Shown here: piece by piece, positions 1 through 55,609 of the stretch
How positions within the stretch are numbered: the stretch's first letter is position 1
Layout of the letters: each line of letters opens with the position of its first letter
Origin: a virus
DNA: 64,000 nucleotides
IMG/VR virus record: IMGVR_UViG_3300045988_122545
Location: 1 to 64,000 of that record
Reading direction: 5' to 3' (one strand)
Made by a program: the position numbers and the translations under genes
The notes under the pieces: generated by a model
What the model saw: only the letters and a program-made list of their open reading frames with translations
What the model was told of the DNA's origin: nothing
The model's database searches: none

Positions 1-2782
1 ATTTTTTTTGAATTTCTAAAGTTTGAAGTTTATCTCTATCTTCATTATTCATTTTTGACTCATCGATATATCCAGAATTATCTCTGTATTTATCTTTTAA
101 TAATCTTATTTTAGAATCAATCTAATCTCTAGCAGCTTGAGCTTCAGCAGATAAAGAATCCATTATTTCATAAAACTCCGTAGTATATTTTCTTTCAGCT
201 CTATGAGATAAAAACTAATTTTTTAATTTTGCGAACTAAGCTCTTAATATAAGATCTTCTGGTAAATTTAAATCACTTGGTTTCATTCCAAATTTTATAC
301 GTAATTGCTGCATAAAATTTGCTACATCATTATTAAATAATCCGTATTTTCTATTTCTTATCAAATAACCAGTTGGTTTTCCATTCTTATCTGTTTCATA
401 AAATTGAAGTAATCCGCCTTTTATATTCTATGATAACCTATTTATAATTACAGATTTATTAAATACTCTTTGTCTACGTTTGTTCTGGCTATCCTGTAAA
501 AGTTTATATAACGTTTTCATAGCAGGGTCTTTTACTTTGTCAGGAGACATAAATAAACGTGTTAATTGAGTAATATCTCTATTTGTATTTAGCACATCAC
601 CGTTCACAAATTCATTTATCGTAGATAACCATATTTGATTAGAACTATCAATATTACTTTCAATCATTATTCTTTTAAAATTTTCTGTCTGCATCTATCT
701 AAGATGATTTCTTGAAAGTTGTAATACGTTCTATACGGTAATAGTTAAATCTCTTAAATTCTGAAATACATCTGTATTTTTAATAGTATCAAATTTACTA
801 AGATCGTCGATTATATCAGATATTTCCTGCATCATCGGGCTATAAAATCCAAAGAAATTTCTATCTAATGATAGAATTCTATCATCGTTTAATACTTTCT
901 AATTATTATATGCATCTAGTATTTCCTATGCTATTTTTGGTAAATCGTTATTTACTAATCTTGTAAATTGAAATATGGCATACAAATCATTTACATTTTC
1001 ATCATTTAATTGAGATATTAGATATTTAATATTTGCTTCTGCTTCAGCTTTATCATCTAAATCAACAATATCTAACGTATTCAATTTTATTTCCATACTG
1101 CTAGATAAAGACTTTCTTAATTTAGAAAGTTGTTCATCTATTTTCTCTTTAGTGTTTATTTGATATGATTGATTTAGCTATTCTAACTACTATTGTAAAA
1201 CATCTCTGGTACCGTCTAATTCTCTATTAAAACTCTCTCTATCTATCCTACTGTTATAGAATTCATCTACTGATTCGTATGTATCAATTTCCTTAGCGTT
1301 TACCTATAATATTAAATCTTCTATTGTATTATATAAATCATCTAATTGTTTTACGGATGAATCAAATTTCTATTTGGGCGAATCGATAATGTTGATTTTT
1401 CTTAATACATCTACAATAAATTCTATGAACTTCTACCAGACAGATTTGCTATCATTGTGAGAATTTTTTGTATCACTATCGATATTCTTGACCGCGTCGT
1501 AAATTATCTATCTAGTAACAGGATTAACCATGAATTCATTTATAAATTCATCTATGCTTTGATCTCCTAATCCATAAAATTTATATTCATCTGGAATATA
1601 TTTTACTAGTTTATCTTTTATTTCCTAAAATTCTTTTCTGTATTTAGAATTTTTAGGATTATCTAAAAATTTTAATAAATAATGATGTAATAATTCGTGT
1701 GCTACCGTTTCTGCAATACTTTCTAATGAACTATTATGGATCGTTTCTGCATATATATTTATATCACCATTGTATGTTGCTAATACATCTTTATTATCTT
1801 CTGGTTTTGACCAACGCAAGTTAACATTTGCTGGTACATTATATAATAATCTTAATAAGTTTAGTACATTTCTATCATAAATTATATCAGGAAATTCATC
1901 ATTCGCGTAATTTTTCTATGAATTCTCCTCATTTAACATAAATAATCGTTCAATCAAATCTTGACTGTTTGATATTTTACCAGAATCTATATCAATGTTT
2001 AAAGCTGATCTTTGTTGTGTTTCAGTAAGACTGAACTATATACGATTATTAGAGTCATATTTTCTATTATAGATATTATTATCTATGGTAGAGAAAGTAC
2101 CACGATTGTCTATTGATTTTATCTGATTTGGGTTTTTAACTACCCATTCTCTAGTAAAATCTTTCCAATTTTCTAAAGCGTCTGCAAAACTAGCTAATTC
2201 TTTGGCATCTTCTTCATTTACTTCTATTATGAGACCATCACCGCTTTTATAGTAATTACTATCTCTGTTATCAAAAGTAGTTAAATCAGGATTTCTTAAG
2301 TTGATAAACACATCAAGATATCTCGCATAAGGAACATATCCCTGTTCCATAAAATTTCTTGCAACAGCTTGATTCATTGTTCCAAAATAAAATCCTTTAT
2401 TTTTACCCTTGTTAAATTTAGAATCAAATGTATCAAAAGTTGCTGTAGCGAAATGATGAAGAATTAATGGTTCACCATTACTATCTACTACTTTAGATAC
2501 ATTTGTTTTATCGTCCTGTTGCCAATCTCCAAACCAATTCTTAAACGTTTTAGAATACACATTTGCTTTAGCTTTTATAGCTAAGTCTCTGTCTCCATTA
2601 TAATGCTATAATAAGTCTGAAAACAGCTTAGACTCAGCCCCGTTAGGGGCTTTATCTAAACTGTATCCATTATTCTAATCCCATAGATAATATGCTGCAT
2701 TTTCACCAACAGCATCAACTAATTCATCAAATTCCTATTTAACTTTAGGATCGCTAAAATTTGGACAAAAAGTATTTTTCAT
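1..2782 (-). CDS. Large virion/cargo-type protein with an HExxH zincin motif. Start is ATG 2780-2782 and the 3' end runs off the window. TAG-recoded.
   Basis: ORF-track pieces 2036..2560, 1625..1819 and 428..694 share one frame and every boundary is cta (TAG). Codon-by-codon reading of 2561-2782 and 2-80 shows no TAA or TGA. Motif AHELLHH lies at about 1685-1699. The ATG sits 2 nt after the TAA of the upstream giant gene. Confidence 0.7.
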
Positions 2783-2784
2783 AA

Positions 2785-5700
2785 TTATTTACCTTTACAT
2801 TTATTTTTAACTATTTCTCCTAAAGCGTTCATATCATTTAAGAATGAATCGTCTATAGGATTAGATATATTCAAATCCCCAGTATCTACAGTATTAACTT
2901 GTTTAACAGCACTTTCAATTAAAGCGGACATATCTGTAAATATATCAGCTTCATTTTGTAAAACTTCAGGTATGTTTTCTGTCATATTATTTGTTGCATC
3001 TCCAGTTGAAAAAATTTCTATACTTTCTGGAGACATATCCTATACATCAACAAAACCTGTGTAATCTGTAATCATAGAAGTATCTATACTAGAATATTCA
3101 TCGTATCCTGGATCTACATAAGTTTGACCTTGTTCTTTAGCTTCTACTGCATCGATTAATACGTCATCTATAATATTATAATTTAATATGTAGTTTTTAA
3201 CATCATCTTTTACATCATTTACTCTATTTTTACCCGATATATTCATGATTTTATCTACAATATTATCATTCTGTAATTTTATAGATTCTTGTATTTGTAA
3301 TCCGTCTATTAATGCTGCACTTGTTATATTGTTTTGTGGGAAAGCTGATATTTGTGTAGAACCGTTTACATACTCAAATATTCTAGTCCCATTATCTTCT
3401 ACTCCTAACTTAGGAGTAAGCAAATACACACTTCTAAGAGAACTTCTTATTTGAGATTCATCATCAGCTCTATTAAGCATTATTTCTCCAACCTTACGAT
3501 ATAATTCACCATTAACGTTTATATATCTGTCTTTGGTATTTTTAGTCATAAATAATACTCTCTTTCTAGATCCATCAGGAGCAATAAATAAGGTCATATC
3601 ACCGTTATTATCATATTTATAAGGCTTTACTATTTCTTTATTATACCACATATTTCTTGCTATTGTAGTAGAAATAGATGGATAATATCCAGATTTAGGA
3701 TCATCTATAGATTCAGCAACCATCTGACCAGCTACAGAATTAACATCACCAAAATCTTCTAAAGCTTTTCTGAATTCAGTAGTATACCCTTTCTTTATCT
3801 TCCAACTAACTGGTACCAAATTAAAGAAATTATTTACCGAATTATTATCGTATGTTGAAAAGTAAGCATACATAGCTAAATCTTCTGCAAAATCTCTGAT
3901 AAATTCATCTTCATGATTTAATAAATCGTCAAACGCAGATATTAATACGTTTTCTGTATATTTATCATTATTCATTGATGAATTAGATAATATTACTTTA
4001 TCTAACATTGTTTTAGTACCATCAGCTGAATATTCTTGTAAATAATTAAGTAACGCATTTTTAATAGTTCCTGTATTCTTATCAATAAGTGTAGGATAAT
4101 TATCTTTTTCCTCTAGAATATAACGTTTAATTGCAGTTAATCTTCTACACATTGTATCTGGACCAATAAACATATCATATAATTTATCTCCATCAATATT
4201 AAAATTAGGATTATTGGCAGCAATTCTTGCTCTAATTACAGATTCCAATGCTTTATTTATTTGAACAACATATTCCTAATCATTTGTATATTGATATTGA
4301 GAATCATCTTCAGATGGACCAACAAAAGTACGCATAACATTAGTATGTATATCCTCATATTCTTTTGTTGCAACAATAGATTGTTTTCTAAGAATGGTTC
4401 TAGGTAATGTTAAACCGTAATACAATTTCTTACCTAAGAATGTAACTTGCATATAATATTCTATTGGAGTTTGATTTTCTATTAATACAGCTTTACTATC
4501 ATTTATGTAGAATATATCTTCATTCTCTTTAGAGAAAGTAGAAACCATATTTTTAAAATTCATTTGAACAGCAAGATTGTTACCATATTTCTTAGTATCG
4601 ATCTAAGATATTTTTACAAGTTTTGCTAATCGTTTAGCATCTGAATTTAACTCTTTATATGCTTTCATTACAATCAACTGCTAATAAGCATATTCAGCGC
4701 TAGTCTTACTTGCTTTTAAAGCATTTTTCAGTTTTGATTCATCAAATACCCAATCATATTGAATATTAGTTATATTTGCGTCATTCATCTGACCAATAGG
4801 TTTCATCTTACTATATGGTCTTTCTCTTAACCAACCATTATACAATTTTATATATTTCTATTTTTCACTTCCATCAGGCATTATGTTAATAGCGTCATAC
4901 AATACTTTCTCATATCGCTGATAATATTTATTTATAACTTTTGCTTCGGTTATAGTAGGATCTACACCATATACACCCCTGTTTGCGATTTGCTCAGCTG
5001 CATACATTTTTAATATATCTTGGGCTAAGAAATAGAATGTTGACTATCCTTTACCGCCTCGCAATAATAAGTTAGTCATGTTATATGTAATCTAATTAAC
5101 ATTTAATGCGATGATATATGGATCTTTTGCAACGTCAACGTGAGCGTTAATCATTGCAGATAACCAGTCTAATATTCTAAATCCGTCTTGTCCTTTTATA
5201 GCATCAAGATTTCCAAGATTATATCTATTACCGTTAGCATAATTCATACACAAATGTGCAAATTGTGTTAATGCATGGTTTGTAGAATTCAATGCAAACG
5301 GAGCAATACCTGCTTTACCACTGGTATATTCTATTTTTCTAGATAATTGGAACGATGGTAATAAAGCGTAACCAGGTTTAGCTTCTGCTAATACGGAAGG
5401 CATAACTAATTTTAATACGTCTTTCTTTAAGAAAGAAGTAAGTGTATCGATTGATGCTTTAGTTTCAGCCATATTGTTTTCGTCAGAAATACACATCATC
5501 TAATATTCCAACATACGATTTGTTATAGCTTCCTTACTTTGCTTATAGAAATCTACATTCTCATCATATTCTACTTTTTTACCGTTTTCAAAATCATATA
5601 TAGCTATATACAATTTATCAACGTCAAAGTCAGAACCAGTCATAGCGGTAAATCCATCTGGAACAACTATTGTATCAGCATAAGTTTCTGGTAATACATC

Positions 5701-8700
5701 CATTACAGTAAAGGCAAAAGTTGATGATGAACCCTGGGTAGGAATACGATAACCAATACCTATTGGTTGAGAATTTTCACCAATTATGTTATTTTCAAAT
5801 AACCAATCTCTCATCATTTTAAAGTTTGCCTATTTTTCTTTTGGAACAATATGTCTAAAGAAGTTAGTAGATAACATTACTTCCATAGAACCATTATTTC
5901 TTAGGAATTTTAAAGAATTACCATTATTTAATGGAGACATATCATTAGGATTGTATTCAATGGTAGCAGTTTTCTTAAATCCAAAATTAGACATCTGAAT
6001 AGCAGCACCACCTTTTGTATTTATGTCTACAACTGTTTTATTAACTAACGATATTATTCTACTTTCAATCCAGTTTCTAGAACTCATAGCACTAACAGAA
6101 ATATTGAAATTTCCATTTTGATCTAACTATAAAGCGTTTATGACTTCTTCAGACATTCCTGATGATTTAGCTTCTTTTATCAATTCATTAGATAACTTCT
6201 GATTATCTATAATCCATTTACCATTTTCCTTTTTAAAGAACTATCTATGGATATCTTTAACACCAAATTCAGTTAATCTATCTATGCAAGACATTATAGT
6301 TTGCTTTATATCAGAACCTTTTACTTTCTTACCTTTGTTTAATCCATAAGTAAGATCATCGCGTAAATTTGATAAAAACATTTTTACAGCCTATGTACCC
6401 ATACTTCTATCCATATGTTCATGAGGATCTGTATTTAACTATAATCTTAAATGTTTTATATCTTGAACTAAAATAGGTAAATCACCGACTTTTCCAGTTT
6501 TTGCATAAGACGGTTTATTCAAAGCTTCAATGTTTAATTGTGTATTTTGTTCGTCTTTATACATTTTAAATGTATTACCTAACCCAACTTTAACAGCAGA
6601 TTCAAATACTAACATATCAATTACTCCAAGATTTTCATTGTTCATACGATCGTATATTAGTTTATTATCTGCTTTACACAAAGATTTAAACATCGGGAAG
6701 ATTGCCATTTTGTTAAATACTGGAATATCCAATCCTAACTGTTTATCAAATGTATCACCCATATAAACCATTTTCTATACATTAAGTATAAGAGGTTTAG
6801 CTAAATTATATAGAGTGGTATCATTCATCCAATTATCGTTGTTTTCAATTATTCTATACGCTTTTTCAATTTGATCATTCCATCTACCTTGAGCCATCAT
6901 TAAACGTCTCCACATTGCTGGACGCATGTATACAGCGGCATCAGATTGATTAATTTCTCCATCTTTGTACGGTGCTGCAGCTAATTTAGACATTTTATTT
7001 ATTCTCTGTTGTGTAGATTCGTCAAATTGTTTCATTATATCATTCATCGTATCCATATTTATAGTAGAATATATTTCATCTACTGATAATTCTGGATGTA
7101 ATGATTCATATTCATCTCGTATTAAAGATAATTTATTTATATTTAGTAATTGTTCATAAAATGGTATAGACACTTGATTATCTGAAAGGTTTAAAACAGT
7201 ATATTTAGTATCGTTACGTTCATCTCCGTCACCCCAGTTCAATCTCATATCTGAACCAGTAGATAATACTGAGGATAGACGTTTAATTTTATCCACATCC
7301 ATACCTATAATCGTACTAAATTCAGCATAATCTTCAGGATTTATACCAGGATTATTTTTAATATATTCACTCAATCCGTCTTTATATATAACTGGCTAGA
7401 AAGAATCATCATTTGGTTTATAAATGGTAGATACACTTAACCATTTATAATATGCTGGATCTCCAGTAAAACATCTTTCTACTTCCTATATTGATATAGC
7501 TGTATTAGCAACATGAGATCCTATAATAGAATATAATATATCATCTGTTTTATTTAATGATGAATAACCTGCAGCGTTTATAGGTTTAAATCTTGTATAA
7601 TATTCGGATACAATATTAGCTGGAATAAGTTTATTGTGTAATAATCCCATCCCGTCTCTGGTTATTATACCCATATTTACTAATTTTTCAACCTCTCTGT
7701 TTGTTAAATCTATAAGATAATTATTAACAAGTTCTTTTAAATTCTATTTGTTGTTCTTTAATAATTGTTCTCTCAAATTATCTAAATATAATTTTACTGC
7801 TAAATCATTGCTATTTGTTTCTAGTTTGGCCAAATCTTGATTTAGATTCTTAGTTTCACCATTAAATACGACATTAGTAAAATATCTAAATCTACCACCG
7901 TTACCACCTGGCAGCATCTTTCCATTTTTTATTTTACCGTGATAATTTTTTCTCCACAATTCAGGATGTGTTGCAACAAAATCTTTTTTATTGAAATAAT
8001 CTATAACAGCATTCAATTCAGATTCAAAGTAATCAGAGAATATATTTATTGCGTCTGAACTAAATCTACGCTCGCCAATAGTAGATACCTGCTATATAAC
8101 ACCATTTACACGTTGTTCAACAGTATTTACTCTAGATAATGTTTCGTGTAACAGATTATATCCTGATATACTATACCAAGTCTTTTTATCTGACATTGTA
8201 GGTAATGTCATCTAATCAGCATTAGTTAAACATAATTTTATTATATAATCTTCTATAGGAGATATTCCGAAATAATCTCTACTTGTCTGAGATTCTTTCT
8301 CTTCTACTGCTATTAATGTATGTAATTTGAATTTAATTTTACCAGCATTTCTAGCTAAAATAGAACTAGCACCATATTTTGAATTTAATATGTTTGATGC
8401 TTTATCGTACATATTCTTATTCAACCATCTTATCTAATCTGACATGTAGTTATTTTCACTAATAGGATATCTTAAACTACCATCAGCACCCGTAACACTA
8501 AACTCTTCAGGAGAAGGATGAACATTACCATATGATACAGCAACTAATCCTATAAAAGTATCTGTTGCATATGGAGGAACGGTAAATATTCTGTTCAAAG
8601 GAATATTTGCTTTTTTAGGATTTTCTTGATAATTTTTTATATTAGTTAATATACTTCCAATAGAATAACTTTTATTACTCTTCCATAAGTTTTTAAATTT

Positions 8701-11700
8701 CTATAAATCATTTATGAACTTTCCGTCTTTATCCGTTGATTTTATGCAATTTAACATATAATCGAAGGTAGGAGAATCCATAGGAATGTATAATAAATTC
8801 ATCAACTGTATGAAATTATCCTTTATGTTATCCAGTAAATCAGTCTGATCAACGTCTTTTTTAGATATTTCTTTTAATATATTATTTATATTATTTTCAT
8901 ACGTCTTTATCTGTTTTACTAACAACGGATTTACAGTTCTTCTATTTCCATCTAATTGTGTATTGTCAGAAGAGAAAAATGCTAACGACCATTGTCTAGG
9001 ATATCTTGCTATTTTAGTAAGATTACTACTATCTTCAATATCCCATATACTTCTTTTTTTGGCTTCTTCCTCTAATTGCATTCTTATTTGAGGATCTTTT
9101 TCACCTTTATAATCAGGTTTATCAGGATGTATCTTAATAGTAGTCATACTATTTTTACTAGATTTTATAGCAACTTCCAACTGTGTTTTCTCCCATTGAG
9201 TCAACTGATTATCCGTATCAGCCAATCTTTCTTTAAGAGCATAAAAGAATGGATCTACAGCACTAAGTCTGTCGCATCTTTCTACCATTTCATCAAACGT
9301 ATCAATATCCCATAAATTTTCCATTACTTTATTCCATGCGATAGAAAAAGGAACTGATTGGTTTAAATTAAATATAGGATCTGTTACAGGAGTAGGTATT
9401 CTTATAATTTTTCCGTCTTCGTATTCAACTGTTTCAAACTGATATTCTGGTATAGAGTAAAAGAATAGTCTTGCATTAAATGCTAATTTGTCTTTCTTAG
9501 AATGTTCTCCTTGTTCAGCATCCCAAGTATTATCTGGCATATCGCCTATTTCTCGTTTCTATTTCTATTTGTCGTCACTTTCTGCATTTTTGGTGTCACT
9601 TATTTCTTTATCTATACCCAAATCCCATAAATATTCTTTTATATATTTACTGAATAATTCACGATTACCCAATACGTCTAATGCTATATCCTAATAATCT
9701 GGATTAATAGAATCACTATTATATAATTGTTCTAAGTTATTAAAGACACTATCGATATTTAATCCTTTCTATAGTTCTCTCTATGTTCGTACTTGCATAT
9801 AAGATAAAGCTGAACCAACTAAAGATCTAACTATATCATAAAATATTTGTCCATCTGATATATTTGGTATTTTAGAATATTCTTCTTCAGACATACCTGG
9901 TATATAAAAATGTAAACCAGAATCATACGCCTGATTAAATTCATTCAATACACTTTGAGAAGGTTTGTATTTAGCAAAGTCACCTTTGTTAATTTTTGCA
10001 TACATCTGAGTATGTAAACCAGGTCTTAGAAAATCTAATTTTAATAATTTTCCAAGTCTATCAAAGAATTTAATTATATGATAAGATTTAAATATACTCT
10101 TCAAACCAACCATATAATCTTTAAATTCTTCAGCCATCGCTTCTTCTATCTATTCTTTAGTATAATCTTCTGCTTTTTTATGACGCTTTATATAGTCTTG
10201 ATATAAAGCAGATCTTTGATTCTCTGTAAGCAGTAATTGACTAACATAGTGCCATGCTTCATGGTATGTAACACCTTTTCCTCCGTGTTTAGAAATTACT
10301 ATTTGTGGATTAAATTCTTTCTTAAAGTAATCCCATACTACACGCATAACACCGTATGCTTTTTCATTAGAATGAGTACGAAGAACAGAATTAGTTATGA
10401 ATATATCTTCATCAGTTAATCCTAATTTATCATTCAACCATTTACGAGCTTTTTGTTCTTTTAATTTACCATTACTTTTTTCTGTAGAATACCATCCCTT
10501 CTGTTTGTATCTTTCCAATCCAAAATTCTTAAGATAGTCTTTTACATTCATTTGAATTATAGAAGGTTTTCCTGTTTTTGGACTAAAGAATATGACATAT
10601 CTAGATCCCAATTGTGGAGCTCTCGTTGGTTTTTGTAACTTATATTTACTTAAATTTTCATCTGTGACTAATTCAGGTTTCTTACCGATGTTTTGTTCCC
10701 ATTCAGGATTTATCTCTTCGGTAATCTCCTATTTAACACCGTTTACAACTACTGTTTTGGTTATTGTTTTCTTATTAGAAGACTTTTTCGGTGTATCTTC
10801 TACCTTCTGTACAGACTACACCTTCTCTTCTTTACTTTTCTGATCTTCTGTAGATACAGTATTTTCTGTTTCTGCAGACGATTTTTGTTCATATCCAGTA
10901 GATGTTGAAATATCACTTCTAGCTACGCCATCTGCAAATACAAAAGGAGCTTTGAATAAATGTTCACCTGTATCTATCTTAATTTTTCCGTGATTTATCA
11001 TCCACGCAATGACAGACGGTGCTTCTTTTTCTCCTTCTATTTTAACTATGTTGTTATTATCATCAATCGTGTAGCCTATATCCGATAGAGTAAAAGCAAC
11101 ATCTGGACCTAATATTTCAATATCAGTATCTTTTGTTAAGGTTTTACCAGCGTCAATATATTCAGATTTAGCTATTTTTAATACATATTGAACTACACTA
11201 TCTGGAATTCTAGACATCATTAAATCTTTATCTGTATTCCAGTGGATATTTCTAGATATATTAAAAATAACTCTTCTTCTCATTGATTCGCTAATGTTAT
11301 CCAATACTATATTACGTATTGCATAATTTTTCTACAATGAAACATCGTCTATATTAGCGGTACCTATCTAAAATACTGTTCTATTCTTCTTATCAACTGT
11401 TACATTTAAAGCTTTACGAACATAAAATTGAACATTAGCAGTTGGACTAGAAAAATGTGGTATAGTTCTCTCTCCAGTTCTAGCTAGTAAACTCAAAAAG
11501 AAATCATTTAATTCTTGATTACTAAACAAACCTTTAGTCATTAATTCGTATATTAATTCGGCTGTAGAAGGTTTGTTATTTAAATTTACTGCCTAATGCT
11601 TATTATCATATGTTAATTTAATATCTTCTGGTCTAGTTACTCCAGGTATCCAATGCTTTTCTTCAGTAAGCATTATAGGTACACTAACTCTTTGAGAAGG

Positions 11701-14700: not shown

Positions 14701-16509
14701 ACTATTTACCAGTCCGTCCAATAAATCGTAATTTTCGATATTGTCGTATTTACCTTGACCATATTCTTTACCTACTAAATATTGTTGACCTTCTTCTCTA
14801 CTTTCCAAGTAAGTAGTAACCAATGATTTTTTTGTATAGTTACCAACGTTTTCTATTATACGTCTAGCAGAATTCTTTTTAATCTAATTTTTACTACCTA
14901 GAGTTGCAGCGTTAACTAATTTATTAGTTAACATCTATTTTGCTCTATTATAAAGAGAATGGTTTGATAATTGACCTAATGTTTCATCATTACGATTCAG
15001 AATAGAAGATGCCATTCTATCACCGGCTATAGTAGATTTAGATGCGTTTAATTTACTTATGTCTTTTACGTATCTACCACCATACATATACATACCAGCT
15101 TCTATTAAATCTGACAACATTAATGCATTATTAGTTTGTTCAACTACATCTAAACCTTTTCTAGATTCATCTATAATTTGGTCTATATTAGCATTACCAG
15201 TATTTATACCAGAGCTAAGCATTGCTCCAAACTTTTGCTGGTCGTCCATACTTTCTACGTCAAAACCTAGTGACTCTAAATTATTATCTATATAATTTTG
15301 TATGGAACTATAATCGATGTTTCCTCTTTGTATTTCTTCAATAACTCGTTGCTGATAATTATCAAACATTTCAGATGCGGTTTCTTTTTCTCTACCCATC
15401 TTTGTTAGTCCGTACTGTATACCAAATTCACTAGCACCAAGTAATAGTGGAGCTAACGTTCCACCACTTCCAACAGTTAATGCTGCACCGGCTAATCTAC
15501 TTATTGCTGCATTTGTTACAATTTGCGCAGCCATTGTTTCTAAATTTGCATAGCTTGATCCAAGTTCAGGTATAGCTTTCCACCAACTATTTGGATCTGA
15601 TATACTTATATCGTTATTTTGATATGCCTCTTGTGCTCTAGGATCTATTTTAGTCGGATCAAATAACCAACTACCTTTATTTACAATATTAGTTCTTTCT
15701 ATAACTTTCTATAATTTAGCATTATAACTAGTTTTAGCATCATCTAATGCGTCGGTTACATCTTGATAACGTTTTTGCAGTTTAGATAAATCGTTTAAAT
15801 CTATTTTTCTATTCCACATATTATCGAAATCTTGTTGACTAAGTGCATCTATACGATCAGATGGTCCTCTTTCAATAAGATGTTGGAAATTATTTAATGG
15901 ATTAACATCATCTATTAAACGTCTATTATCCAAATCTACTAAAGTTGAAGCTATACTAGCTCTTCCTGCATTAACGTCATTATTACGTATTGCATCTACC
16001 AAACTAGTTTCATAAAATATATTTTGTAAATAAGGATTAGTTCTAGCCTATTCTTTAACAATTGGTTCTAGCTAGTTTATTTTATTTAGCAGATTATATT
16101 TCAGTGTTTCTATTTCGGTAATCTAATTGTCATTTAATCTTGTTAGATCTTGTGAATTTAATTGTTTGTAATTCATTGCAGCCTATACGTAATCGAAAGC
16201 TGTCTATACCTGCGGAAGCCACGTTGCTTCAGTCTAACTCAAATTGTTTTGAGCTTCACTCAGTCTTACTTGTGCACGATTCTTATTTGCCTATCTCCAA
16301 TTATCTTCTACACTAGGAACATAATCATCATTATTAGATGATTCATTGCTAGTTGAAGATGAAATAGCATTGTCTACATATTGTTTAATTCTATAACCAG
16401 TAGCTGCAGGAATTTCATATTCTCCTGTATTTTCATTATATTTATACTAGTTAATAAGAGATCGCTTACTTTCTTCTAAGTATTGTTTAAATAAAGTATT
16501 GTCGTTCAT
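2785..16509 (-). CDS. Giant (about 4574-codon) TAG-recoded virion protein containing an RNA-polymerase beta-prime-like double-psi beta-barrel catalytic motif. Candidate virion-packaged RNAP / cargo polyprotein.
   Basis: 22 ORF-track pieces from 2785..3036 up to 15709..16002 are all in one frame (coordinate = 1 mod 3) and all are separated by cta (TAG). I read gaps 4564-5091, 6088-6438, 7375-7485, 12499-13680 and 16003-16509 codon by codon and found only TAG, no TAA or TGA. ATG at 16507-16509 lies 12 nt after the TAA (16521) of the upstream gene, and the true stop is TAA 2785-2787. Motifs: YRIPTQG...GSDFDVDKLY (5617-5631) and YHEAWHY (10249-10263). Not every gap was checked. Confidence 0.7.
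5617..5631 (-). other. DFDVD metal-binding loop (DxDxD) of a DPBB RNA polymerase domain
   Basis: The context IGYRIPTQGSSSTFAF...TIVVPDGFTAMTGSDFDVDKLYI parallels the beta-prime pattern R-x-P-T ... NADFDGD. Confidence 0.6.
12600..13400 (-). repeat. Acidic/polar low-complexity linker (D/E/N/T/P/Q-rich) inside the giant ORF, with the highest TAG density seen
   Basis: Direct translation gives, for example, TP(TAG)(TAG)DDSTESRIEDLQNDKVEEQ and A(TAG)E(TAG)TNPVTQDTNSDD. There are 16 in-frame TAG in about 394 codons (12499-13680). Confidence 0.7.
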
Positions 16510-36057: not shown

Positions 36058-36061
36058 ATTA

Positions 36062-44185: not shown

Positions 44186-45652
44186 TTACTCGCTTAGCAT
44201 GATAAGTTCTCCGCAAGCTCTAGGATCTCTAAGCATTATACCCATTTCACCTAAGAAATGAACAGAATAGCCATCCTTAGCATTACTACGAACTTCAGTA
44301 TTAGAATGAGCGTAACCTGCAGGAGTTACAGAACCAGCCGTACACCAGTTAACGAATTCACGGTCTTTACGAACAACCTTAACAATGTTAGCTTCACCAT
44401 CACGACGACCAAGGTCAAGGAATGTCATACGATATGATTCCAACGGTTTCAAAGTAATCGGATGCAACTGACGGTTGTAAGTAGTATTGTCATACAACGG
44501 GAAATACTTCAAAGTAAGTTCAATACCGTTAGACATCTTATAAGTCTTGAACTGACCACCAAATGTCAAATTGTCACCAGAACCAGTTACGAATACAGTA
44601 TCGATAAGATTCATGTTAGCCATCTTTTCTTTCAATACTCTATCGAACTCACGCATACCCATTTCACCAGTCAATGCAACAAACTTACGTTCGTTAGTAC
44701 CAAGTACATTGTATGACAAGTCTGACAAGAAATCTTCGAGCAATTCAGCAGTCAAACGAGTATAGAAACGTCTGTTAGACGGAGCAATCTGTTCGAGCAA
44801 ACCAGCACCGATAAATACCGGACGACCGTTAGCACCTTTCAGATTACAAGAACCATCACGGTTAACATTACTTACATTATAAACTAAAGCACGTTCAATA
44901 CGCTTATACCATTCACGCATAGCAACCCATTCCTGGAATGTAGACCACAAATAAGAAGTCTTACCTGATTTAGGATCTTTCAAAGCAACTGCCATTACAG
45001 TAGAATAAGCTGAACCAGTAATATCATAAGAAAGACGTACTGTCGTAAGATAGTTACGCATCTTGAAATGAGTATTATAGTTCAGGATATCAGCCTGTTC
45101 ACTATATTCTTCGTATGCAGAAGCAAGACGAGATACCTGACAACCTGGTTTTAAAACAGACGGATCAATATAAGATGCAGGATTACCATTAGAAACAAAT
45201 ACAGTATAAACATACAAGCTACCATCCTGATACGGAGCATCTGATACACGTACCTGGCTCTTGTCATCAAGTTCCAAAGTAGCACCCGGACCAAACCAGT
45301 TATCTTCCAACCACAACTGAATCGGAGTGTTGTTCAAACCAGCAGTAGTAGTATCTGAAATGGTTGCGCCATTCCATTTTGCATCACGGATTGTAACTGC
45401 ACGATCCTGATCAATCATTACACCCCATTCGAAAGAAGGCTGATCGATAACCATTACGTTACCAAGACCACCAGTAAGCATATCCAAAGATGTTGTGTAA
45501 CCATTATCTTTTGTACCAAATACGTATGATAAAATAGTTGATACTTCATACGGTCTCTACTGTGAAGCGATTGAAATTTTATTAGTATCAATCAAATCAC
45601 TAAACCATTTTCCTTTATAGAGGACTAAATTATTTAGAATATTGTTATCCAT
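44186..45652 (-). CDS. Major capsid protein candidate (488 aa), 1 in-frame TAG at 45557-45559
   Basis: ORF 44186..45487 extends through a single TAG to ATG 45650-45652 (phase checked, 1467 nt). It lies directly downstream of the acidic scaffold-like gene. Its size is typical of crAss-like MCPs, and GC and codon bias are elevated. Confidence 0.6.
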
Positions 45653-46855: not shown

Positions 46856-46865
46856 AATTAACATA

Positions 46866-48814: not shown

Positions 48815-48815
48815 A

Positions 48816-48890: not shown

Positions 48891-51347
48891 TTACTTCTCA
48901 CCTGCGACCTTATTCTTGATTGCGGTACGAGCTTTTAATTTTTCACGTTCCATTGCAGCATCATTATTCATCTTTTGAAGTTGAGTTTCATGCTTCATAC
49001 GGTCACGTTCCAACTACATCTTTTTATTTTCAATTTGTTTCTTATTCTCTGAATCTCTTAATTTAGCATTAAGCTCCATTTGTTTTGCAGATTCGTCTGC
49101 AATTTGTTTTCTTTCAGCCAATGCTTGTTGTGCAATTTCCATTACATCAGGAATACCATTATCATTCTGATCTAAGTCTTGTAAACCTTTATATGCATTT
49201 AATTGTGCAACAGTAATCTTAGTTTGAGAATCTGTATCAATCTTATACTTTTCTAATTCGAGTTCTGCTTCTTTAAGCATAAGTTCTTCTTCTTTAACTC
49301 TATTCTGTTCAGCAATCAATTGTTGTTGAGCTTCCTGCTCAGCTTGTTGTTGCTGTTGCATTTGTTCCATACGTTTCTGTTCAATATCTTCAAGTCTATC
49401 TTTAATCATATTAATGTTATCCATTGTAATAATTTCTGCGATATCTAACAGGCTTGCTCCATTTTGCATAGCAGGTTGTAACAACTGTTTTAACTGATCT
49501 AAGTCTTGTCTATTCTTTGTACTATCTTCTACAAACACATCCATATCTGAATAGAAGAAATCATCTGATAAAGTAATGAAAGCTCTAGTAGCATCATCTA
49601 AGATATAGTTAAGACATGTTTTATTATCTTTCCATGCTACCTTAGCGGTATCCAATAACATTGTTAAAACTTCTTTTTTGACCTGATTGTGTGTCCAAAA
49701 CCACGGTTCGGTAATATGATACGACTGAGTAATAGCTTGTGTGGTATTACCTACCAATTCGCTTGCCGCAATGGATCCTTGTCTCTGTGGAGTAATACCA
49801 GTCAATTTGGCTACCATATCTTCAATCTTAGCCATAAGATTAACATACTGATCAATTATATTAGCCATACTTAAATCCCATGACTGGAACTGATTAAATG
49901 CTGCTGGTCTACCACCTTCTCTACCCGGAACATCCCATCCTTCTTCATAAGGATTGATAAATGCTACACCTAATGCTCCTAAGTAATGCATCCATTTGTT
50001 TACATCAATACCCATAGATTTCGGTATCTGAGTAACATCTACTACAGGTACTTTACCTTTATCTCTGGACATAGCCAATTCTAATCGATACCAAACTACA
50101 ATATACATATACTGTAACGGTTTCATCATACTGACCAAAGATCTAGGTTTACTATTAGTATTATTATAAAGTACACCAGTATACGGTAATTTTGATGAAT
50201 TAGGATTATCTGCAGATATGTGTTGATATTCCAAAGGTTGAATTCCGATATATAAATCATCACCAATTCTATAACCTTCCCATACTTCTATAATCCATTT
50301 CCAATCAACAGATTCTTCTTCACCAGTTACTTTGTAATCTTCATCTACTTGATATTCTTCTACTTCTCCAGTTTCTTCATTTATCAAAGTAACAAATCCA
50401 ATCTTCTTAAAAGATTTCCAACAACAATGATAAACTGTAATTTGATCGGTATCAAATGGATTATCAGTAAAACTATTCAATTTATGAAGTTTTACGTGAT
50501 TATAATCCAATTCGGATTTACCTACTTGAGGAGTCATACCTGAACCTGGTTTTTCATCGATTAATTCAAGTAACTCGTTTAATTGTTTTTCTGACATCTT
50601 ATCATAGAAGCGATCATATATTTCTGTTGCAGACATAATCATCTTTCTACAACACCATGCTGCATCGTGAATATATTCCAAATCTACAGATTTTTCATAG
50701 TCGAAATACATCGGATTAACTCTTTCTACATAAGGTTGTCCGTTACGAATACCAACATAATATATTTCCTCGCCACCGATTAAAGCATCTTTCCATCCTT
50801 TATAAAATTCGTGAGGAAGATTCAATTTACGTTTCAAATACTATAATGTATGATAAGCTGTTCGTTCTGCGATATCTTTGTAATCTTTAGTTAAATACTT
50901 CTGTATTGCTTCTGGTTGCATTACTTCACCAGTTTGTAAAGCGTCTTGATATCTTTGAGCATTCTCTGGACTCAATTTAGCCATTATACTAGACTGTATA
51001 TAGTCCATTAACATTTGTTTAGCTTTCTCTTGCAATTCACTAGTAGCTTCATCACTAGTTCTACATACTTGAAAATTAAATGAACGTTTTGTTTCTTCAC
51101 CTAATAATTGGTCGATATAAGGTTTAATTATATTATAATCTTGAGCTGTTGCTGGAAATCCATCTTGTTGTTTAAACGGATTAGTAACATATTTCAAATC
51201 TCTTTCATCATATATACTATTATAAAGATCATAATATGTTTGCATTTCCGAAGCTCTCTCGCTATTAAAACCACTATGACCAGTATTACCAGATCCTGCT
51301 ATATAATCAACACAAGCTTCTTTCCAATCCTAATTCTTCTTAGACAT
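48891..51347 (-). CDS. Portal protein (about 818 aa), 3 in-frame TAG
   Basis: Pieces 50841..51245 and 49014..50837 are in one frame joined by TAG 50838. The N-terminus extends through one TAG to ATG 51345-51347. The C-terminus extends through TAG 49014 to TAA 48891 (all phase-checked). It is immediately downstream of TerL and has a long Q/E-rich C-terminal coiled coil. Confidence 0.7.
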
Positions 51348-51412
51348 TGGTAATTTTTGTGGTGGAAATGATTTTAAATCTTTCATAATTAATTAGTAAA
51401 TGTATATACATT

Positions 51413-54400
51413 ATCATCGTCAAACTTTACTGGACTTTCGTCATCAAACCAATTTTGCGCAAATATTGGTCCATCAAAAAGTAAACGACTCTTATTTTCT
51501 TTTTCTTTTTCTTTTACTACTACATTAAATAATTGTTCACGATAAATCATTACCTACATCAGAGCCATGACTCTATCGGTATTTATTATATCGTTGTATG
51601 CAATTAATTCCTCTAGTAATGGTTCAGATAATATGTTGTATAAGTTCTTTTTGCCATCAGCATTTATATCATTCAACCAGTCTTTTATTAATCCTTCACC
51701 CCAAGCTTTAATTGATTTATTCATATGGCAACCTTTCTTTCTCTGTACTTTAGAATTACCAACAATATCATTGATTATATCTGGTTGATCTGCTAGTAAA
51801 TAATCACAATGTTTGTTAGCAAAGTAAACGAATAAGCCTTTATTCTGATTTTCATACATTGCTCTGGCATTATAGTATATCAACAACTTACGAACATTTT
51901 CGTAGAAATCATCTGCTGCTTGAGGTCTACCAGTATATTCTGCAACAATTATATCTGAATAAGATTCTATATTCTATATTCTTTTATATATGATACACGA
52001 ACCTAATGAATTTGTTCCTGACTAATCATGGTCATATGGGTCAATTCCTGCAATATATAAACCAAATGGTGCATCTTTCATAGGATGTTCCCATATAACT
52101 ATAGAACCAGTAGGATCATCATCTTTATTTAGAGGATAATGTGTAATATCTCCTGTCTTTTTAATTACCCAACTAATATTTCCATCAGGTGTTTGTACTA
52201 AATCACCTATTTGTTTATGATTCTATAGCTGTTTATTTGTACGTATTCTAGCCAACTATTCCTATAGCTCTTTCTTAGGAAATATGTTTCCTCCAAATTC
52301 CAAACAAGCTTCTGCTGGAGTAATACATCTTTCACAAACATACCTATCTACTGCTACTGAATTAGTAGCATTTTGTATCATTTCTTTACGTTGCTCCAAT
52401 ATAAAATCTAGAGAAGGTTTACGTAATGTATTACCATCATTATCCATATAAATACGATTACATTTATCATCTCTAATATCCATATTAGCGTACTATGGTA
52501 TAAAGAATCCACACGTACTAGTTACTGCATTTTCATCCCATATATTCTATAATTCTACACAGTTATATCCTTTTGGTTTATAGAACATATCTTTCAATGT
52601 AGCAAAGTTTGATTCTTCATCTCCACCAGTATTATGTGTTACAATACCATTTACAATATAATTATGCTGTTCTTTAGCAGTAATGTTATATATATCTTGT
52701 ATACCGATATCTGTTATATTTGTGATTTTATCTGCAACTATTCCACAAAGATATTTATTATATTTTGGTAACTCGGACTGAATAAATAAATAAATTAAAT
52801 CCAGTGCTGCTGATTTTCTAGAAACTGTTAATTTTATATGTTGAGAAAATCTACCTAGACTTACCACATCAGCAATTTCTAATCGATATTCGCCGTTTTT
52901 ATCAGAAATAAAATGATCCTTGTATTTCCTAATTCTATTAGTAGGTTTAATATAACGAATAATCCCATGTATACCAAAATGCAACAACGCTTCTTGTACC
53001 TAAAGTAATATGTCTTTCTAACACTACGTTAATACTATTCTGGCTCGTTTTTTACTAAAGTGTATGTACCCATCAGTATCGTATAATCCGCCAATTAATT
53101 CACTTATTGTATATTCATCATAACTATTGAAATCTATAGGCAGACGTTTATTACCTTTAGTTTGTCCATATATACCTAATTTTCTTAGCTATTTGCATAT
53201 TCCTTTTATACGGATTTCTTGATAATTCTTATTATCTTTAGTAGTATATTGTTTTTCAATAACTGTATCGAAATGAGAATGAACATAATCTAATATTTCC
53301 TATTCGCAATTACTTAGTATGGGCGTTTTATTATTTCCATAGCTTCCGTCGCCTATTAACCATCCTATAAATCTAGGTTCCCACATTACGTTTTTGCCAA
53401 ATATAGGGATCTAATCTATCAAACCTACTTGGTCTCCTATTTTACATTTTTGTGCTTCGTGCCATAACCAAGACTTCATACGTTCGTTTTCAAATCTTTT
53501 TCCAGAAACACGTTTTGTCCTACCAGGAGTAGACCATAATAAAGGATGGTCTTTACTACATCTTATTGTTCTACCCGATTGTAATTCTATTTGAACACAT
53601 TCTTTCTATGATATCGGATTAATGTTTTCTATGTTTTGTATAGACGCCTGATAGGTATCCCATCCAATTATACCATCTTCTTGTTTTAAATTCTCTATAT
53701 TAATACAATTACCGTCTGATGTCCATACTCTAGATCCTTTGCACACACATCCAAATGCTATCATGGTACCAAATGCTACACCATCAACTTCAACAGACGG
53801 TCTAGCAATTTGCCATGCTGCACCTAATTCTTTAAATGAACCAGCTTCTTCGAATAAGATTAGTTTTGCTTTCTTACCACGGACTATATCAGGATTATCC
53901 TTAAGAGTAACACCAATTATTTCTGATTTATAACCTAATTCTACTTCATTACCAAATTCATCTTTAGTAAAGAATCCAGCTCTTTTACGCATTGCTGTAT
54001 TAACAGATCTTTTCTTACCCCATGCAGTATTCTTATCGATAAAGTCCATGTAATCCCACGCTTTAGTAAGAATACCATCATCTGTTAAGTATTGTTTATT
54101 TGAAGCATATACATAGGATTTAGAATTAGGAATAAGGTAGTAATTACGACATAACATAGAACCACCTTTATAACTATTATGAGTGGGTATAAAATCTTTT
54201 GTTATATATAAATGATTTTCGTTATCGATGCATAAGCATCGTTGTTTTTCAAATTTGCCAGTTCTACGAATTGCTTTTATTCCGATACCATTATAATTAT
54301 ACTTTCTATCTTTACGAATTTTCTCCAATTTTCTAGGAAGTTTAAAGATATCTTCTTGTGTAGTAATACACAATTCCCAATGAGGTAAAGTATTAGATTT

Positions 54401-55609
54401 GCAACCGTTATTAAATTCTACTCCAAATCTACCTTCTATTTCTTTAGATTTGTGACATCTTATACCGAGACTTCTTAATACAAATTGTAAATCATCAATT
54501 AATTGTTCTGAAGTTGATACGAACGTAGAAGCGCCATTTGTAATGCTACCGTCAGTATCCATTAAACCTCGTACCAATTCAAATCGATTTTCAACAGAAG
54601 TGTATTTGTAATTTTCAGGAATAAATTTTTTATTTGCTTTTACTTTTATTCCTAATTTTTTTAATTCTCTATTTAAATTATTATGTTTTTTATCTTTTGA
54701 TATTATTACGTAAGCATATTTATCGGATTCTATTTTTTTAATAATATAATCTGGTAATCTACGTGATAACTCTTCTACGATAAATTGATCGGCTGTAGAA
54801 AATCTAACTTGTGATCCACATATGTATCCATCTCCTAGTAATACACCTAATACATAAGGATCAATGTGTATTGGTTTTTCATCAAATCGTAAAGGATTTA
54901 TAGCAGGTACTTTATAAGGATAATGCTCTTTTCCTTTTGAACCTTGTGTTAATTTGCGTTTAGCATATTCTTTAGTAGGCATTATATAAAATTTCTTACC
55001 GTTTCTGCACGTAGCCCATAAATGATTAGCTCCGCATCTAACAACACGACCATCTTGAAATTCAACTTCGTATACTTCTTGAATACCTTGTTCTACAATA
55101 TCTCCAATTTTAACAGGACTACCGTTAGGATTCATTACCATATCACCAACTTTTAAAGATCCCATTTGAACAAAACCGTTCGGCGTTAATACTTCTTCAG
55201 AATAAGGTTGTTCATATCCTTTACGTCTACTTTTAAGTACGCATAAATGCTTACCTGATTCCTCAGCATCCTAGATGGTTTGAAAATAAAAATAGTCGTA
55301 ATCCCAGAAATCAGGGAATGCGACTTCCTAGACAGTCACGATTTTATCTTTACCATGTCTGTCTTTTATCTTCTTATTTACAGATCTATTAATAGGACAA
55401 AAGTTTAAATAGAAATAATTATAACCACTAATCCAATCTCCATCTTCTGCTGTATATCCTTCCAAACATCTACGTTTCTATTCATCCCAGTAAGAGAAAT
55501 ATTCTGAAGTATTAGATGCATAATTACAGTATTTACCTGTCTATTCAAACGTAATAGCTGGTTCTCTGAATTTATTACTATTTGCTATTTTTTTATTAAA
55601 GTCTACCAT
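51413..55609 (-). CDS. terL: Terminase large subunit interrupted by two inteins, about 17 in-frame TAG
   Basis: Pieces 53606..55165, 52547..52987, 52262..52483 and 51554..51886 are all in one frame. ATG 55607-55609 and TGA 51413-51415 were phase-checked. The exteins carry CVLKSRRKG (P-loop-like), KLILFEEAGSF (Walker-B-like), IAFG|TGGDEES across intein 2, and AGIDPYDHD (nuclease-like). Confidence 0.8.
52631..53749 (-). mobile_element. TerL intein 2 (canonical class 1) with a LAGLIDADG homing endonuclease, containing in-frame TAG codons
   Basis: It starts FG|CVCKGSRVWTSDG (Cys at 53747-53749). Block B is GRTIRCSKDHPLL. LAGLIDADG motifs are IGWLIGDGSYG and LIGGLYDTDGY. It ends NGIVTHN|TGG (52631). 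The length is 1119 nt, in phase. Confidence 0.75.
54176..55213 (-). mobile_element. TerL intein 1 with a LAGLIDADG homing endonuclease. Candidate class 3 intein (no Cys/Ser at position 1).
   Basis: Hint block A-like EQPYSEEVLTPNGF. Block B GRVVRCGANHLW has Trp two residues after His. LAGLIDADG motifs LGVLLGDGY and LVRGLMDTDGS. Block F QRCLCIDNENHLYI. The C-terminus is IPTHN|S (54176). The N-terminal boundary is approximate. Confidence 0.65.

Follow-up and report, generated by a model that had tools for sequence, protein, structure and literature searches.

The window analysed here is a 64-kb stretch out of a viral genome of roughly 97 kb, and all features located in it are encoded on the minus strand (Table 1). 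Read along that strand, a block of putative early genes is followed by a phage-encoded suppressor tRNA with anticodon CUA and then by a module of packaging, head, tail and lysis genes that opens with the gene for the terminase large subunit (TerL). The tRNA sits exactly at the early/late junction, between the last TAG-free and the first TAG-containing gene.

Table 1. Genes and other features located in the 64-kb window.
Feature	Position	Strand	Remarks
Late module (packaging, head, tail, lysis)	1..55609	-	36 genes, 216 in-frame TAG; TerL is the first gene, start at 55609; last gene truncated by the window edge at position 1
Giant virion protein	2785..16509	-	4574 aa, 62 TAG
Tail ring protein 1 (CrAss_Ring_1)	24512..25417	-	E = 2e-106; 5 TAG, all in domain
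Tail ring protein 2 (CrAss_Ring_2)	25887..26528	-	E = 3.5e-70; 4 TAG, all in domain
Holin (Phage_holin_4_1)	29229..29711	-	TAG at codons 2, 7, 21, preceding domain
Tail fibre protein, C-terminal Peptidase_S74 chaperone domain	33190..36111	-	973 aa, 16 TAG, 1 in S74 envelope
M15-like peptidase	36062..36520	-	weak Pfam match; TAG at codons 15, 34, 76
Major capsid protein	44186..45652	-	488 aa, 1 TAG; 90% identical to cr6_1 protein
Portal protein	48891..51386	-	831 aa, 3 TAG
TerL	51389..55609	-	1406 aa, 19 TAG; exteins 12 TAG
TerL intein 2 with LAGLIDADG	about 52632-53750	-	7 TAG
TerL intein 1	about 54174-55213	-	0 TAG
Terminator-like hairpin + T-run	55631..55650	-	between tRNA unit and TerL start codon
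tRNA-like remnant	55739..55806	-	acceptor, D and T arms intact; anticodon arm collapsed
Decoder cassette, swapped	55811..56089	-	no homology to 97-98% identical relatives
tRNA with anticodon CUA (amber suppressor), 89 nt	55876..55964	-	ARAGORN
Leader motif AGTCTTTTCGGAGTAGACTTTAAAGAACTCCG	55969..56000	-	directly 5' of tRNA; inverted repeat CGGAGT/ACTCCG
Second terminator-like hairpin	56070-56083	-	after last early ORF
Upstream early block	56091..63852	-	about 20 genes incl. ThyX, Dam, dATP/dGTP diphosphohydrolase

Genes were called greedily from ATG to stop on the minus strand, using code 11, a table with TAG as a sense codon and, as a control, a table with TGA as a sense codon. Code 11 returned 90 genes covering 60.3% of the window (56.8% of the late part), the longest of 634 aa. 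Re-calling with the TAG-sense table, as the initial annotation had suggested, raised coverage to 96.3% (98.6% of the late part) with 52 genes and a longest frame of 4575 codons, and the TGA-sense control reached 61.3%, that is, no real gain over code 11. Only a sense reading of TAG restores the open reading frames, which bears out the view that TAG is an abundant sense codon across the late module. Of the 36 late genes, 25 contain TAG, which makes up 1.18% of the codons in the module and supplies 26% of its Gln codons. The TAG-sense gene lengths, giant ORF included, agree with those of the standard-code relative cr1_1, in which the orthologue of the giant virion protein is an unbroken ORF of 4551 aa. 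Under the standard code, more than 100 fragments had been reported; in agreement with this, we counted 252 TAG-delimited pieces in the late genes, of which 148 reach 30 aa or more. Similarly, the pieces from position 2785 onward, said to share one phase, form the single frame of the giant virion protein. Local TAG density, previously put at 2.5-4%, reaches 4-6.7% in windows of 150 codons. TAG never terminates a gene: all genes in the window stop at TAA or TGA (23 and 12, respectively, among the late genes), and the next start is usually close, as had been noted, with 21 of 35 late junctions spaced by -10 to +15 nt and the remainder by up to 132 nt.

Eight inter-fragment gaps had been described as containing TAG and neither TAA nor TGA; no internal TAA or TGA was found in any of them, but their TAG counts (4, 3, 1, 16, 8, 3, 2 and 8, as against 5, 4, 1, 16, 10, 3, 2 and 9) matched exactly in only four. 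The four mismatches, by 1-2, probably arose because the earlier count took in TAGs at gap edges. Recognisable domains were also said to run straight through TAG. This holds for S74 and intein 2, and the TerL exteins carry 12 TAG, but the TAGs of portal, M15 peptidase and holin lie within the ORF yet outside the Pfam envelope, between start codon and domain for all those in M15 and holin and for 2 of 3 in portal. The Pfam envelopes that do hold TAG are Peptidase_S74 (1), intein 2 with LAGLIDADG (7), CrAss_Ring_1 (5) and CrAss_Ring_2 (4).

The early block is different. None of its genes carries an in-frame TAG or ends in one (13 stop at TAA and 3 at TGA), and the one TAG among 2321 called codons, compared with some 27 predicted from the late-gene rate (P about 4e-11), is located upstream of the likely true start. 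Among ORFs of 40 aa or more in this block, a single one ends in TAG (62684-62878), and it is nested out of frame in a real gene. Since there is no in-frame or terminal TAG, the early block is identical under code 11 and code 15. Recoding is confined to the presumed late genes, structural and lysis, and the presumed early genes are compatible with the standard code.

TerL, portal, major capsid protein, ring proteins and the giant virion protein are homologous to and syntenic with those of the family Suoliviridae, and the major capsid protein orthologue matches PF23898 Crass_capsid. At the amino acid level, TerL is 74% identical to that of cr115_1 and cr113_1. The code-15 relatives cr6_1 (Afonbuvirus faecalis, NC_055894) and cr113_1 (Buchavirus coli, NC_055896), both of the former Delta group, follow the same gene order, and their TerL, portal and major capsid protein genes are 73-78% identical to those of the window at the nucleotide level. 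As in the window, this group uses TAG as sense only in late genes, stops at TAA or TGA, shows Gln opposite TAG and carries a tRNA(CUA) immediately upstream of TerL. The window differs from code-15 crAss-like relatives in having two inteins in TerL. A search of the phage collection returned no record at 85% identity or above, and the window is a new lineage relative to that collection. Metagenome assemblies hold genomes 97-98% identical to it, and near-identical genomes turn up in many independent metagenomes. Overall, judging from sequence comparison, we put at roughly 0.9 the probability that the window comprises about two thirds of a Crassvirales (Suoliviridae) genome that uses code 15 in its late genes, with UAG as glutamine.

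Such recoding had been described as known in gut phages including crAss-like lineages, and the literature agrees for Suoliviridae. TAG-to-Gln recoding was reported in late genes of Delta/Suoliviridae crAss-like phages (Yutin 2021, Borges 2021; PMC7886860; 10.1101/2021.08.26.457843), and peptides prove decoding of TAG as Gln in two other crAss-like phages (Peters 2022; PMC9523058). TAG recoding itself is thus already well documented for the family, and the unusual detail is the shape of the phage's own TAG-reading tRNA. The amino acid (Gln), the decoder tRNA at 55876-55964 and the TAG-free early block are additions to the initial annotation.

The columns holding TAG lie inside conserved blocks, opposite Gln or TAG in relatives, and not at alignment ends or gaps; the fragments are neither separate short genes nor pseudogenes. 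Against standard-code relatives (cr1_1, ProJPt-Bp1 and crAss001; 153 cells), TAG columns show Q in 38 cells (25%), somewhat below the 32% at which true CAA/CAG codons match themselves in the same comparison. In log-likelihood Q is ahead of the next best residue by 66 nats, with Y, L and S behind by 179, 170 and 88 nats. No Ser or Sec signal was found at TAG columns. Among recoded relatives, Q occupies 42 of 77 amino-acid cells in conserved context, in addition to 33 TAG-TAG cells, and in the 97-98% identical relatives window-specific TAGs face CAG (2-4) or CAA (0-1) only. Where all lineages compared have the long tRNA type found in the window, CAA/CAG accounts for 48 of 70 differences between TAG and another codon (Tyr 0, Leu 4, Ser 1); for lineages with class-I tRNA the figure is 45 of 58, and the two do not differ significantly (chi-square about 1.3). 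By these substitution patterns, TAG positions evolve as Gln codons. Because the tRNA swap in this strain is recent, TAG positions in the window are for the most part a record of the ancestral decoder, and insertion of Gln by the long tRNA therefore rests mainly on the other lineages carrying it.

The 89-nt tRNA combines an acceptor stem of 7 bp, a D-stem of 5 bp closed by the 4-nt D-loop CGAU, a variable region of 21 nt that includes a 5-bp stem, and a 5-bp T-stem with the loop UUUGACU. The discriminator is A73, the first pair C1:G72 and position 10 an A; G18G19 is absent and CCA is not encoded. The GA of the D-loop may pair with U56 in the T-loop, a plausible substitute for G19:C56. Rfam gave no match above threshold, the best being tRNA-Sec at 33 bits against a gathering score of 47. 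With tRNA-Sec and allo-tRNAs it shares a D-stem of 5-6 bp, the 4-nt D-loop and a long variable arm, but its acceptor/T arms are 7/5 and not 8/5, 8/4 or 9/3, its anticodon is CUA and not UCA, and it has A73 and not G73; tRNA-Sec (RF01852) was rejected on these grounds. Nor is it a canonical bacterial tRNA-Gln, a class-I molecule with a variable loop of 4-5 nt, a normal D-loop carrying G18G19 and a weak 1:72 pair, given its variable region, D-loop and C1:G72, together with A73 and A10. Most code-15 relatives have a class-I tRNA of 74-80 nt instead, and the class-I tRNA(CUA)s of relatives start with U1. On the other hand, bacterial amber suppressors (supE tRNA-Gln(CUA) and GlnRS-mischarged CUA tRNAs) resemble it in the CUA anticodon and the apparent insertion of Gln, and it probably works as a Gln suppressor despite its non-canonical body.

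At the place of the decoder cassette, the 97-98% identical relatives have 580 nt with an 88-aa ORF and a 75-nt class-I tRNA(CUA), which lies at the matching syntenic position behind a shared leader motif. From this comparison, the 89-nt tRNA has recently replaced a class-I tRNA(CUA) still kept by the nearest relatives. The 89-nt tRNA recurs unchanged in a phage with just 74-80% identity in the flanking sequence, and the long type is common to cr113_1 and about 20 IMG/VR contigs. Its six variants have an invariant body and a hypervariable acceptor stem, in which 7 of 7 pairs have changed in a compensatory manner while pairing stays at 100%, a sign of selection on pairing. One anticodon-stem pair covaries as well, and the 1:72 pair is C1:G72 in four variants and U1:A72 in two.

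The order of the genes hints at the timing of the switch. Early genes would be translated by unmodified host machinery; tRNA(CUA) would then build up until it outcompetes host RF1 at UAG codons, and only from that point would the structural and lysis proteins be made at full length. E. coli amber suppressors are commonly glutaminylated. Host GlnRS probably charges the 89-nt tRNA with Gln mainly via the CUA anticodon, which was offered as a hypothesis for the main Gln identity element (10.1101/2021.08.26.457843). The model of a code switch as late/lysis gate is that of Borges et al. (10.1101/2021.08.26.457843), and it fits the early first TAGs, which fall at or before codon 50 in 17 of the 25 TAG-bearing late genes that could be scored, including codons 2, 7 and 21 of the holin. 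Lak megaphages and other clades of Borges et al. share with the window an early region compatible with the standard code, recoding of structural and lysis genes, a phage suppressor tRNA and a lysis gene with TAG near its 5' end. In contrast to other TAG-recoded gut phages, neither a release factor nor an aminoacyl-tRNA synthetase was seen within the 64-kb window, and the switch point is marked by one tRNA unit with terminator-like hairpins at its borders.

The body of this tRNA invites the idea that TAG is now Tyr, Leu or Ser in the window's strain, the Gln signal being a trace of a replaced tRNA-Gln(CUA). By E. coli identity rules, a class-II-like variable arm, A73, C1:G72 and the lack of G18G19 would point to Leu or Tyr. 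LeuRS and SerRS recognise their tRNAs without reading the anticodon, and the swap is very recent relative to the 97-98% identical genomes, so that the window's TAGs are inherited. We nevertheless regard this as very improbable: older lineages with the long tRNA keep up the exchange of TAG with CAA/CAG as class-I lineages do, close relatives show only CAG or CAA opposite window-specific TAGs, the likelihoods of Y, L and S fall far below that of Q, and altering about 216 Gln sites, many in conserved motifs of TerL and ring proteins, would probably be harmful. We also see only a slim chance that the 89-nt tRNA is not a functional decoder and that TAG is read by a host suppressor or by a phage tRNA outside the window; with 64 kb of roughly 97 kb in view, the rest could hold a further tRNA(CUA), a synthetase or a release factor. 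It does score below the Rfam thresholds, and recoded phages with no detectable suppressor have been reported (PMC7886860; 10.1101/2021.08.26.457843). However, it forms a perfect cloverleaf with all seven acceptor pairs compensated across variants and with a plausible D-loop/T-loop pairing, it fills the exact slot of the only tRNA(CUA) detected in close relatives, behind the same leader motif, and it is found unchanged between flanks of only 74-80% identity.

A degraded late module, with pseudogenes or a defective phage in which TAG is a genuine premature stop, would account for the shattered code-11 view (252 pieces, 57% coverage). Yet the frames are broken by TAG only, never by TAA or TGA, and continue past every TAG; conservation of TAG positions extends across genera (26-33 TAG-TAG cells); differences from close relatives are mostly synonymous (e.g. 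251/387); and near-identical genomes recur in independent metagenomes. Together these observations refute degradation, to which we allow a negligible probability. Pyrrolysine, finally, was suggested by the ARAGORN label 'tRNA-Pyl', a label that the tool gives to any CUA anticodon. The variable region is 21 nt in the window tRNA as against 3 nt in tRNA-Pyl, TAG aligns with Gln with no Pyl-like substitution signal, and a scan of window proteins that took in part of the proteome turned up no pyl genes, so that a tRNA-Pyl identity is effectively refuted and practically without weight.

Annotation of 1-55609 needs a TAG-sense table; code 11 loses about 40% of the coding sequence and shatters every large structural gene of the window. 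The window offers one more clean two-code layout, with a TAG-free early block, a decoder tRNA and TAG-rich late genes, and this layout underlies the idea of a phage code switch gating late and lysis translation. The decoder locus itself is evolutionarily fluid, with near-identical phages carrying structurally unrelated tRNA(CUA)s, all apparently for Gln. Intron-split and extended-anticodon-arm tRNAs also occur among relatives, and several tRNA(CUA) forms of near-identical phages are labelled only 'tRNA-Pyl' by ARAGORN. Acceptance of such diverse bodies by a single host synthetase calls for an explanation. In published surveys, a TAG suppressor was detected for only about 40% of phages with TAG recoding (10.1101/2021.08.26.457843). 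Atypical tRNA(CUA) forms are a plausible reason for this low detection. Tentatively, and with rather more doubt than confidence, the long tRNA may represent an undescribed family of non-canonical amber suppressors that moves as a precise in-place cassette among Suoliviridae. If so, the compensated acceptor variation could mean re-tuning to different host synthetases or, instead, escape from host factors that target tRNA, and this family, taken together with the intron-split and extended-anticodon-arm forms, would explain why many recoded phages seem to have no suppressor tRNA. Taken to its extreme, this reading would allow the long tRNA to be charged with an amino acid different from Gln.

Terminator-like hairpins numbered four, against 0.4 expected in shuffles. 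The leader motif, a candidate promoter or processing element, is kept by close relatives ahead of their different 75-nt tRNA(CUA), and in L113 its inverted repeat is compensated to GGGG/CCCC. The tRNA-like remnant is homologous to an intact tRNA-Gln(CUG) of L113, which stands there behind an identical long tRNA.

The window, which has a GC content of 30% and carries all of its coding on the minus strand, is a case of code-15 recoding (TAG read as Gln) in a crAss-like phage of the Suoliviridae, a group in which TAG recoding is already known. Reading TAG as sense raised the total of minus-strand stop-to-stop open reading frames (ORFs) of at least 100 aa from a standard-code value of 14,057 aa to 20,556 aa, with practically no gain (14,391 aa) in a control where TGA was read as sense. 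Greedy ATG-to-stop calling returned 90 genes covering 60.3% under the bacterial code 11 and 52 genes covering 96.3% with TAG as sense; coverage of the late part rose from 56.8% to 98.6%, and that of the early part was the same under both. The 36 genes of the late module (positions 1-55609) contain 216 in-frame TAGs among 18,332 codons (1.18%) next to 467 CAA and 151 CAG, so that TAG makes up 26% of presumed Gln codons, and it splits these genes into 252 pieces, of which 148 reach 30 aa or more. All genes in the window terminate at TAA or TGA, and the sole TAG-terminated ORF of the early block is out of frame and nested within a real gene. The initial annotation had claimed that TAG is an abundant sense codon, and never a terminator, throughout the late module; as written this is correct, and every defining feature that sequence can test was found. 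Its eight translated gaps between fragments do hold TAG only, but its TAG counts were reproduced in four of them and were off by 1-2 in the other four.

The nearest annotated records (cr6_1, cr60_1, cr52_1, cr113_1 and cr115_1) are Crassvirales of the Suoliviridae with identical gene order and 73-78% nucleotide identity across MCP, portal and TerL. Logan and ENA assemblies contain many genomes 97-98% identical to the window, and the annotated phage collection contains none. Pfam matches in the late module comprise portal, a GIY-YIG homing endonuclease, Peptidase_S74, holin, CrAss_Ring_1, CrAss_Ring_2 and a TerL intein with LAGLIDADG; early matches are ThyX, Dam and dATP/dGTP diphosphohydrolase. 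TAG falls within the Pfam envelopes of S74, intein 2, Ring_1 (5/5 TAGs) and Ring_2 (4/4). In portal, M15 and holin the TAGs lie inside the ORF and outside the envelope, between start codon and domain in every case for M15 and holin and in 2/3 for portal. Gene lengths with TAG as sense agree with those of cr1_1, a Suoliviridae phage without in-frame TAG: for example, the giant protein has 4574 aa (4551 aa in cr1_1) and the next one 1376 aa (1374 aa).

The amino acid at TAG was approached by translating the DNA of relatives with TAG marked and tabulating the residues opposite the window's TAGs. Protein database matches to the TerL exteins were close relatives only, their proteins already translated through TAG, and Q in these was left out because it is not independent evidence. 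Among recoded relatives, at a local identity of at least 0.6, Q occupied 42 of 77 amino-acid cells, a further 33 cells being TAG-TAG, and led all other residues by more than 130 nats in an empirical likelihood. The standard-code relatives (cr1_1, ProJPt-Bp1 and crAss001), whose aligned regions are free of in-frame TAG, gave Q in 38 of 153 cells (25%), not far from the rate of 32% at which true CAA/CAG codons match themselves. Q was best here by 66 nats; Tyr, Leu and Ser lay 179, 170 and 88 nats behind, and decoding as any of these was rejected. In TerL, many TAGs belong to conserved motifs and recur in cr6_1. Opposite TAGs private to the window, the 97-98% identical genomes have CAG or CAA only; opposite TAGs private to those relatives, the window has CAG (4-5), CAA (1) and a single GAA, TTG, TGG and TCG. 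Alignment, likelihood and codon swaps thus indicate that TAG behaves as a synonymous Gln codon. The same assignment has been published for this phage group (PMC7886860; 10.1101/2021.08.26.457843), with peptide evidence for Gln at TAG from two other crAss-like phages (PMC9523058). Pyrrolysine at TAG, selenocysteine-type decoding and pseudogenisation of the late module were also considered and rejected.

A modest addition to this picture is the decoder, a non-canonical, recently swapped tRNA. The window's tRNA(CUA), 89 nt long, is not a canonical tRNA-Gln. Its acceptor stem has 7 bp and its D-stem 5 bp, the D-loop spans 4 nt and lacks G18G19, a stem of 5 bp forms within the 21-nt variable region, the T-loop reads UUUGACU, and the discriminator is A73. 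Rfam gave no match anywhere in the window at gathering thresholds, and under permissive settings this tRNA matched tRNA-Sec alone (33 bits vs a gathering score of 47). At the same position most Suoliviridae relatives carry a class-I tRNA(CUA) with a short variable loop, 74-80 nt long and starting with U1. Among 80 IMG/VR loci around TerL, 51 had a short CUA tRNA, 6 a long one and 23 none called by ARAGORN; cr113_1, additional IMG/VR contigs and two MAG contigs have the long form as well. Across six long variants the body is invariant, the acceptor stems vary at 7/7 pairs while remaining 100% paired, and one anticodon-stem pair covaries, which argues for a functional tRNA. A search of 185,579 bacterial and archaeal genomes for a cellular progenitor used the body pattern and left the anticodon open. 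It found no copy with a non-CUA anticodon and matched only two short MAG contigs of phage-like DNA, both CUA. In our literature search, no long-variable-arm suppressor was found described for crAss-like phages, though this does not prove that the form is new.

In 8/8 close relatives (97-98% nucleotide identity in the flanks) the locus holds a 75-nt class-I tRNA(CUA) and an 88-aa ORF, and the window has the long tRNA only; the leader motif that precedes the tRNA at its 5' side was kept across the swap. A more distant relative, L113, carries a long tRNA 100% identical to the window's between flanks just 74-80% identical, reflecting either transfer or extreme conservation. Near-identical relatives with another tRNA, together with the L113 identity, indicate that the decoder is swapped at its locus over very short evolutionary distances. 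The portal gene has 3 TAGs in the window and 4-5 extra in L106-L111, opposite window CAG, CAA or TTG, numbers too small to judge TAG loss since the swap.

Because the swap is recent, the window's TAGs mostly report the ancestral decoder, and the comparison was hence made among genomes that all carry the long tRNA. There, differences between TAG and another codon involved CAA/CAG in 48 of 70 cases (Tyr 0, Leu 4, Ser 1), against 45 of 58 in class-I lineages, with no significant difference (chi-square about 1.3). These codon exchanges are best read as a sign that Gln is inserted by the long tRNA, too; insertion of some other amino acid by this non-canonical molecule appears very improbable. Host GlnRS would presumably recognise the long tRNA through its anticodon, a step we infer from what is established in E. 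coli suppressor genetics and from the hypothesis put forward in 10.1101/2021.08.26.457843.

The last early gene and TerL are separated by a gap of 690 nt, which holds the tRNA, a conserved 48-aa ORF, two terminator-like hairpins and a tRNA-like remnant; terminator-like hairpins in the region number 4 against 0.4 expected. In-frame TAG is absent from the roughly 20 genes upstream of the gap, where the late-gene rate predicts about 27 (P about 4e-11), and downstream of the tRNA the first TAG of TerL is codon 23. These observations define a layout of code-neutral early block, decoder and TAG-dependent late block. Completion of late and lysis proteins would then have to await effective competition of the phage tRNA with RF1, as inferred after Borges et al. 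The first TAG falls in codons 1-50 in 17 of 25 TAG-bearing genes scorable for position, and holin has TAGs at codons 2, 7 and 21; the shift of TAG towards the 5' end of genes is weak (KS p = 0.004 including the giant gene, p = 0.13 excluding it) and serves as a qualitative remark only. A sigma-70 promoter scan near the tRNA found 3 sites vs 4.4 expected, under a model unsuited to Bacteroidota or phage RNA polymerase promoters. The leader motif is conserved in relatives with a different tRNA and compensated in L113 (GGGG/CCCC); it may be a promoter or processing signal. The remnant, also present in decayed form in the window's close relatives, has its intact homologue in L113, a tRNA-Gln(CUG) placed after the identical long tRNA(CUA).

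Coordinates of features in the window and in related genomes
Feature	Genome	Position	Strand	Remarks
tRNA(CUA)	window	55876-55964	-	ARAGORN; only tRNA called in window
Leader motif	window	55969-56000	-	inverted repeat CGGAGT/ACTCCG
tRNA-like remnant	window	55739-55806	-	acceptor, D and T arms good; anticodon arm collapsed
Homology break	window	55811-56089		vs L106-L112 and L026; e.g. L106 9217-9796
TerL	window	51389-55609		two inteins
Intein 1	window	about 54174-55213		346 aa; 0 TAG
Intein 2	window	about 52632-53750		373 aa; LAGLIDADG; 7 TAG
Portal	window	48891-51386		
TAG-free late genes	window	43032-44114, 45698-46864, 39719-40705, 30723-32363, 29829-30476, 28027-28578	-	
ThyX-like gene	window	58062-59963	-	633 aa
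Divergent ThyX-like stretch	window	58367-58822		about 80% identical to relatives
Split tRNA(CUA)	cr115_1 (L007, NC_055898)	16095-16395	-	
Split tRNA(CUA)	L048, L061	9433-9733		
tRNA-Gln(CUG)	L113	1557-1627		
104-105-nt tRNA-like gene	L034	8372-8476		
104-105-nt tRNA-like gene	L095	9036-9139		
104-105-nt tRNA-like gene	L043, L045, L046, L054, L057, L067			
87-nt tRNA	crAss001 (L022, MH675552)	5721-5807		anticodon CAU

Other unusual tRNAs were found among the relatives. No suppressor tRNA is annotated in cr115_1, yet a tRNA(CUA) is present, its anticodon loop split by an intron of about 228 nt resembling group I (a sub-threshold match to Rfam Intron_gpI, with 21 bits and E = 0.004). The last base of the 5' exon is U and that of the intron is G, and the spliced product (71 nt) folds as a cloverleaf with the loop CUCUAAC. 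In eight recoded relatives where no CUA tRNA was called, a tRNA-like gene lies upstream of TerL. Its acceptor stem is GGGAGAG, its anticodon arm is extended and its variable arm long; the loop carries CUG in 7/8 and CUA in L095, and the gene may represent a further non-canonical decoder, for Gln or amber. The standard-code crAss001 tRNA has a long variable arm, so class-II-like arms on tRNAs with class-I-type anticodons occur elsewhere in Crassvirales.

Some genes of the window differ in TAG content or length. The TerL of the closest relatives (687 aa) lacks both inteins, and the TAG contrast between these suggests that they differ in residence time in a recoded genome, or in source. Among the TAG-free late genes are those for the GIY-YIG/NUMOD1 homing endonuclease of 360 aa, a DUF7841 protein and a protein of 546 aa without a match in Pfam; these genes may be recent arrivals, or their translation could precede the code switch. 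Finally, the ThyX-like protein has 441-446 aa in 97% identical relatives, and its Pfam Thy1 match in the window covers residues 484-629 only, which suggests an inserted segment or a replaced N-terminal part.
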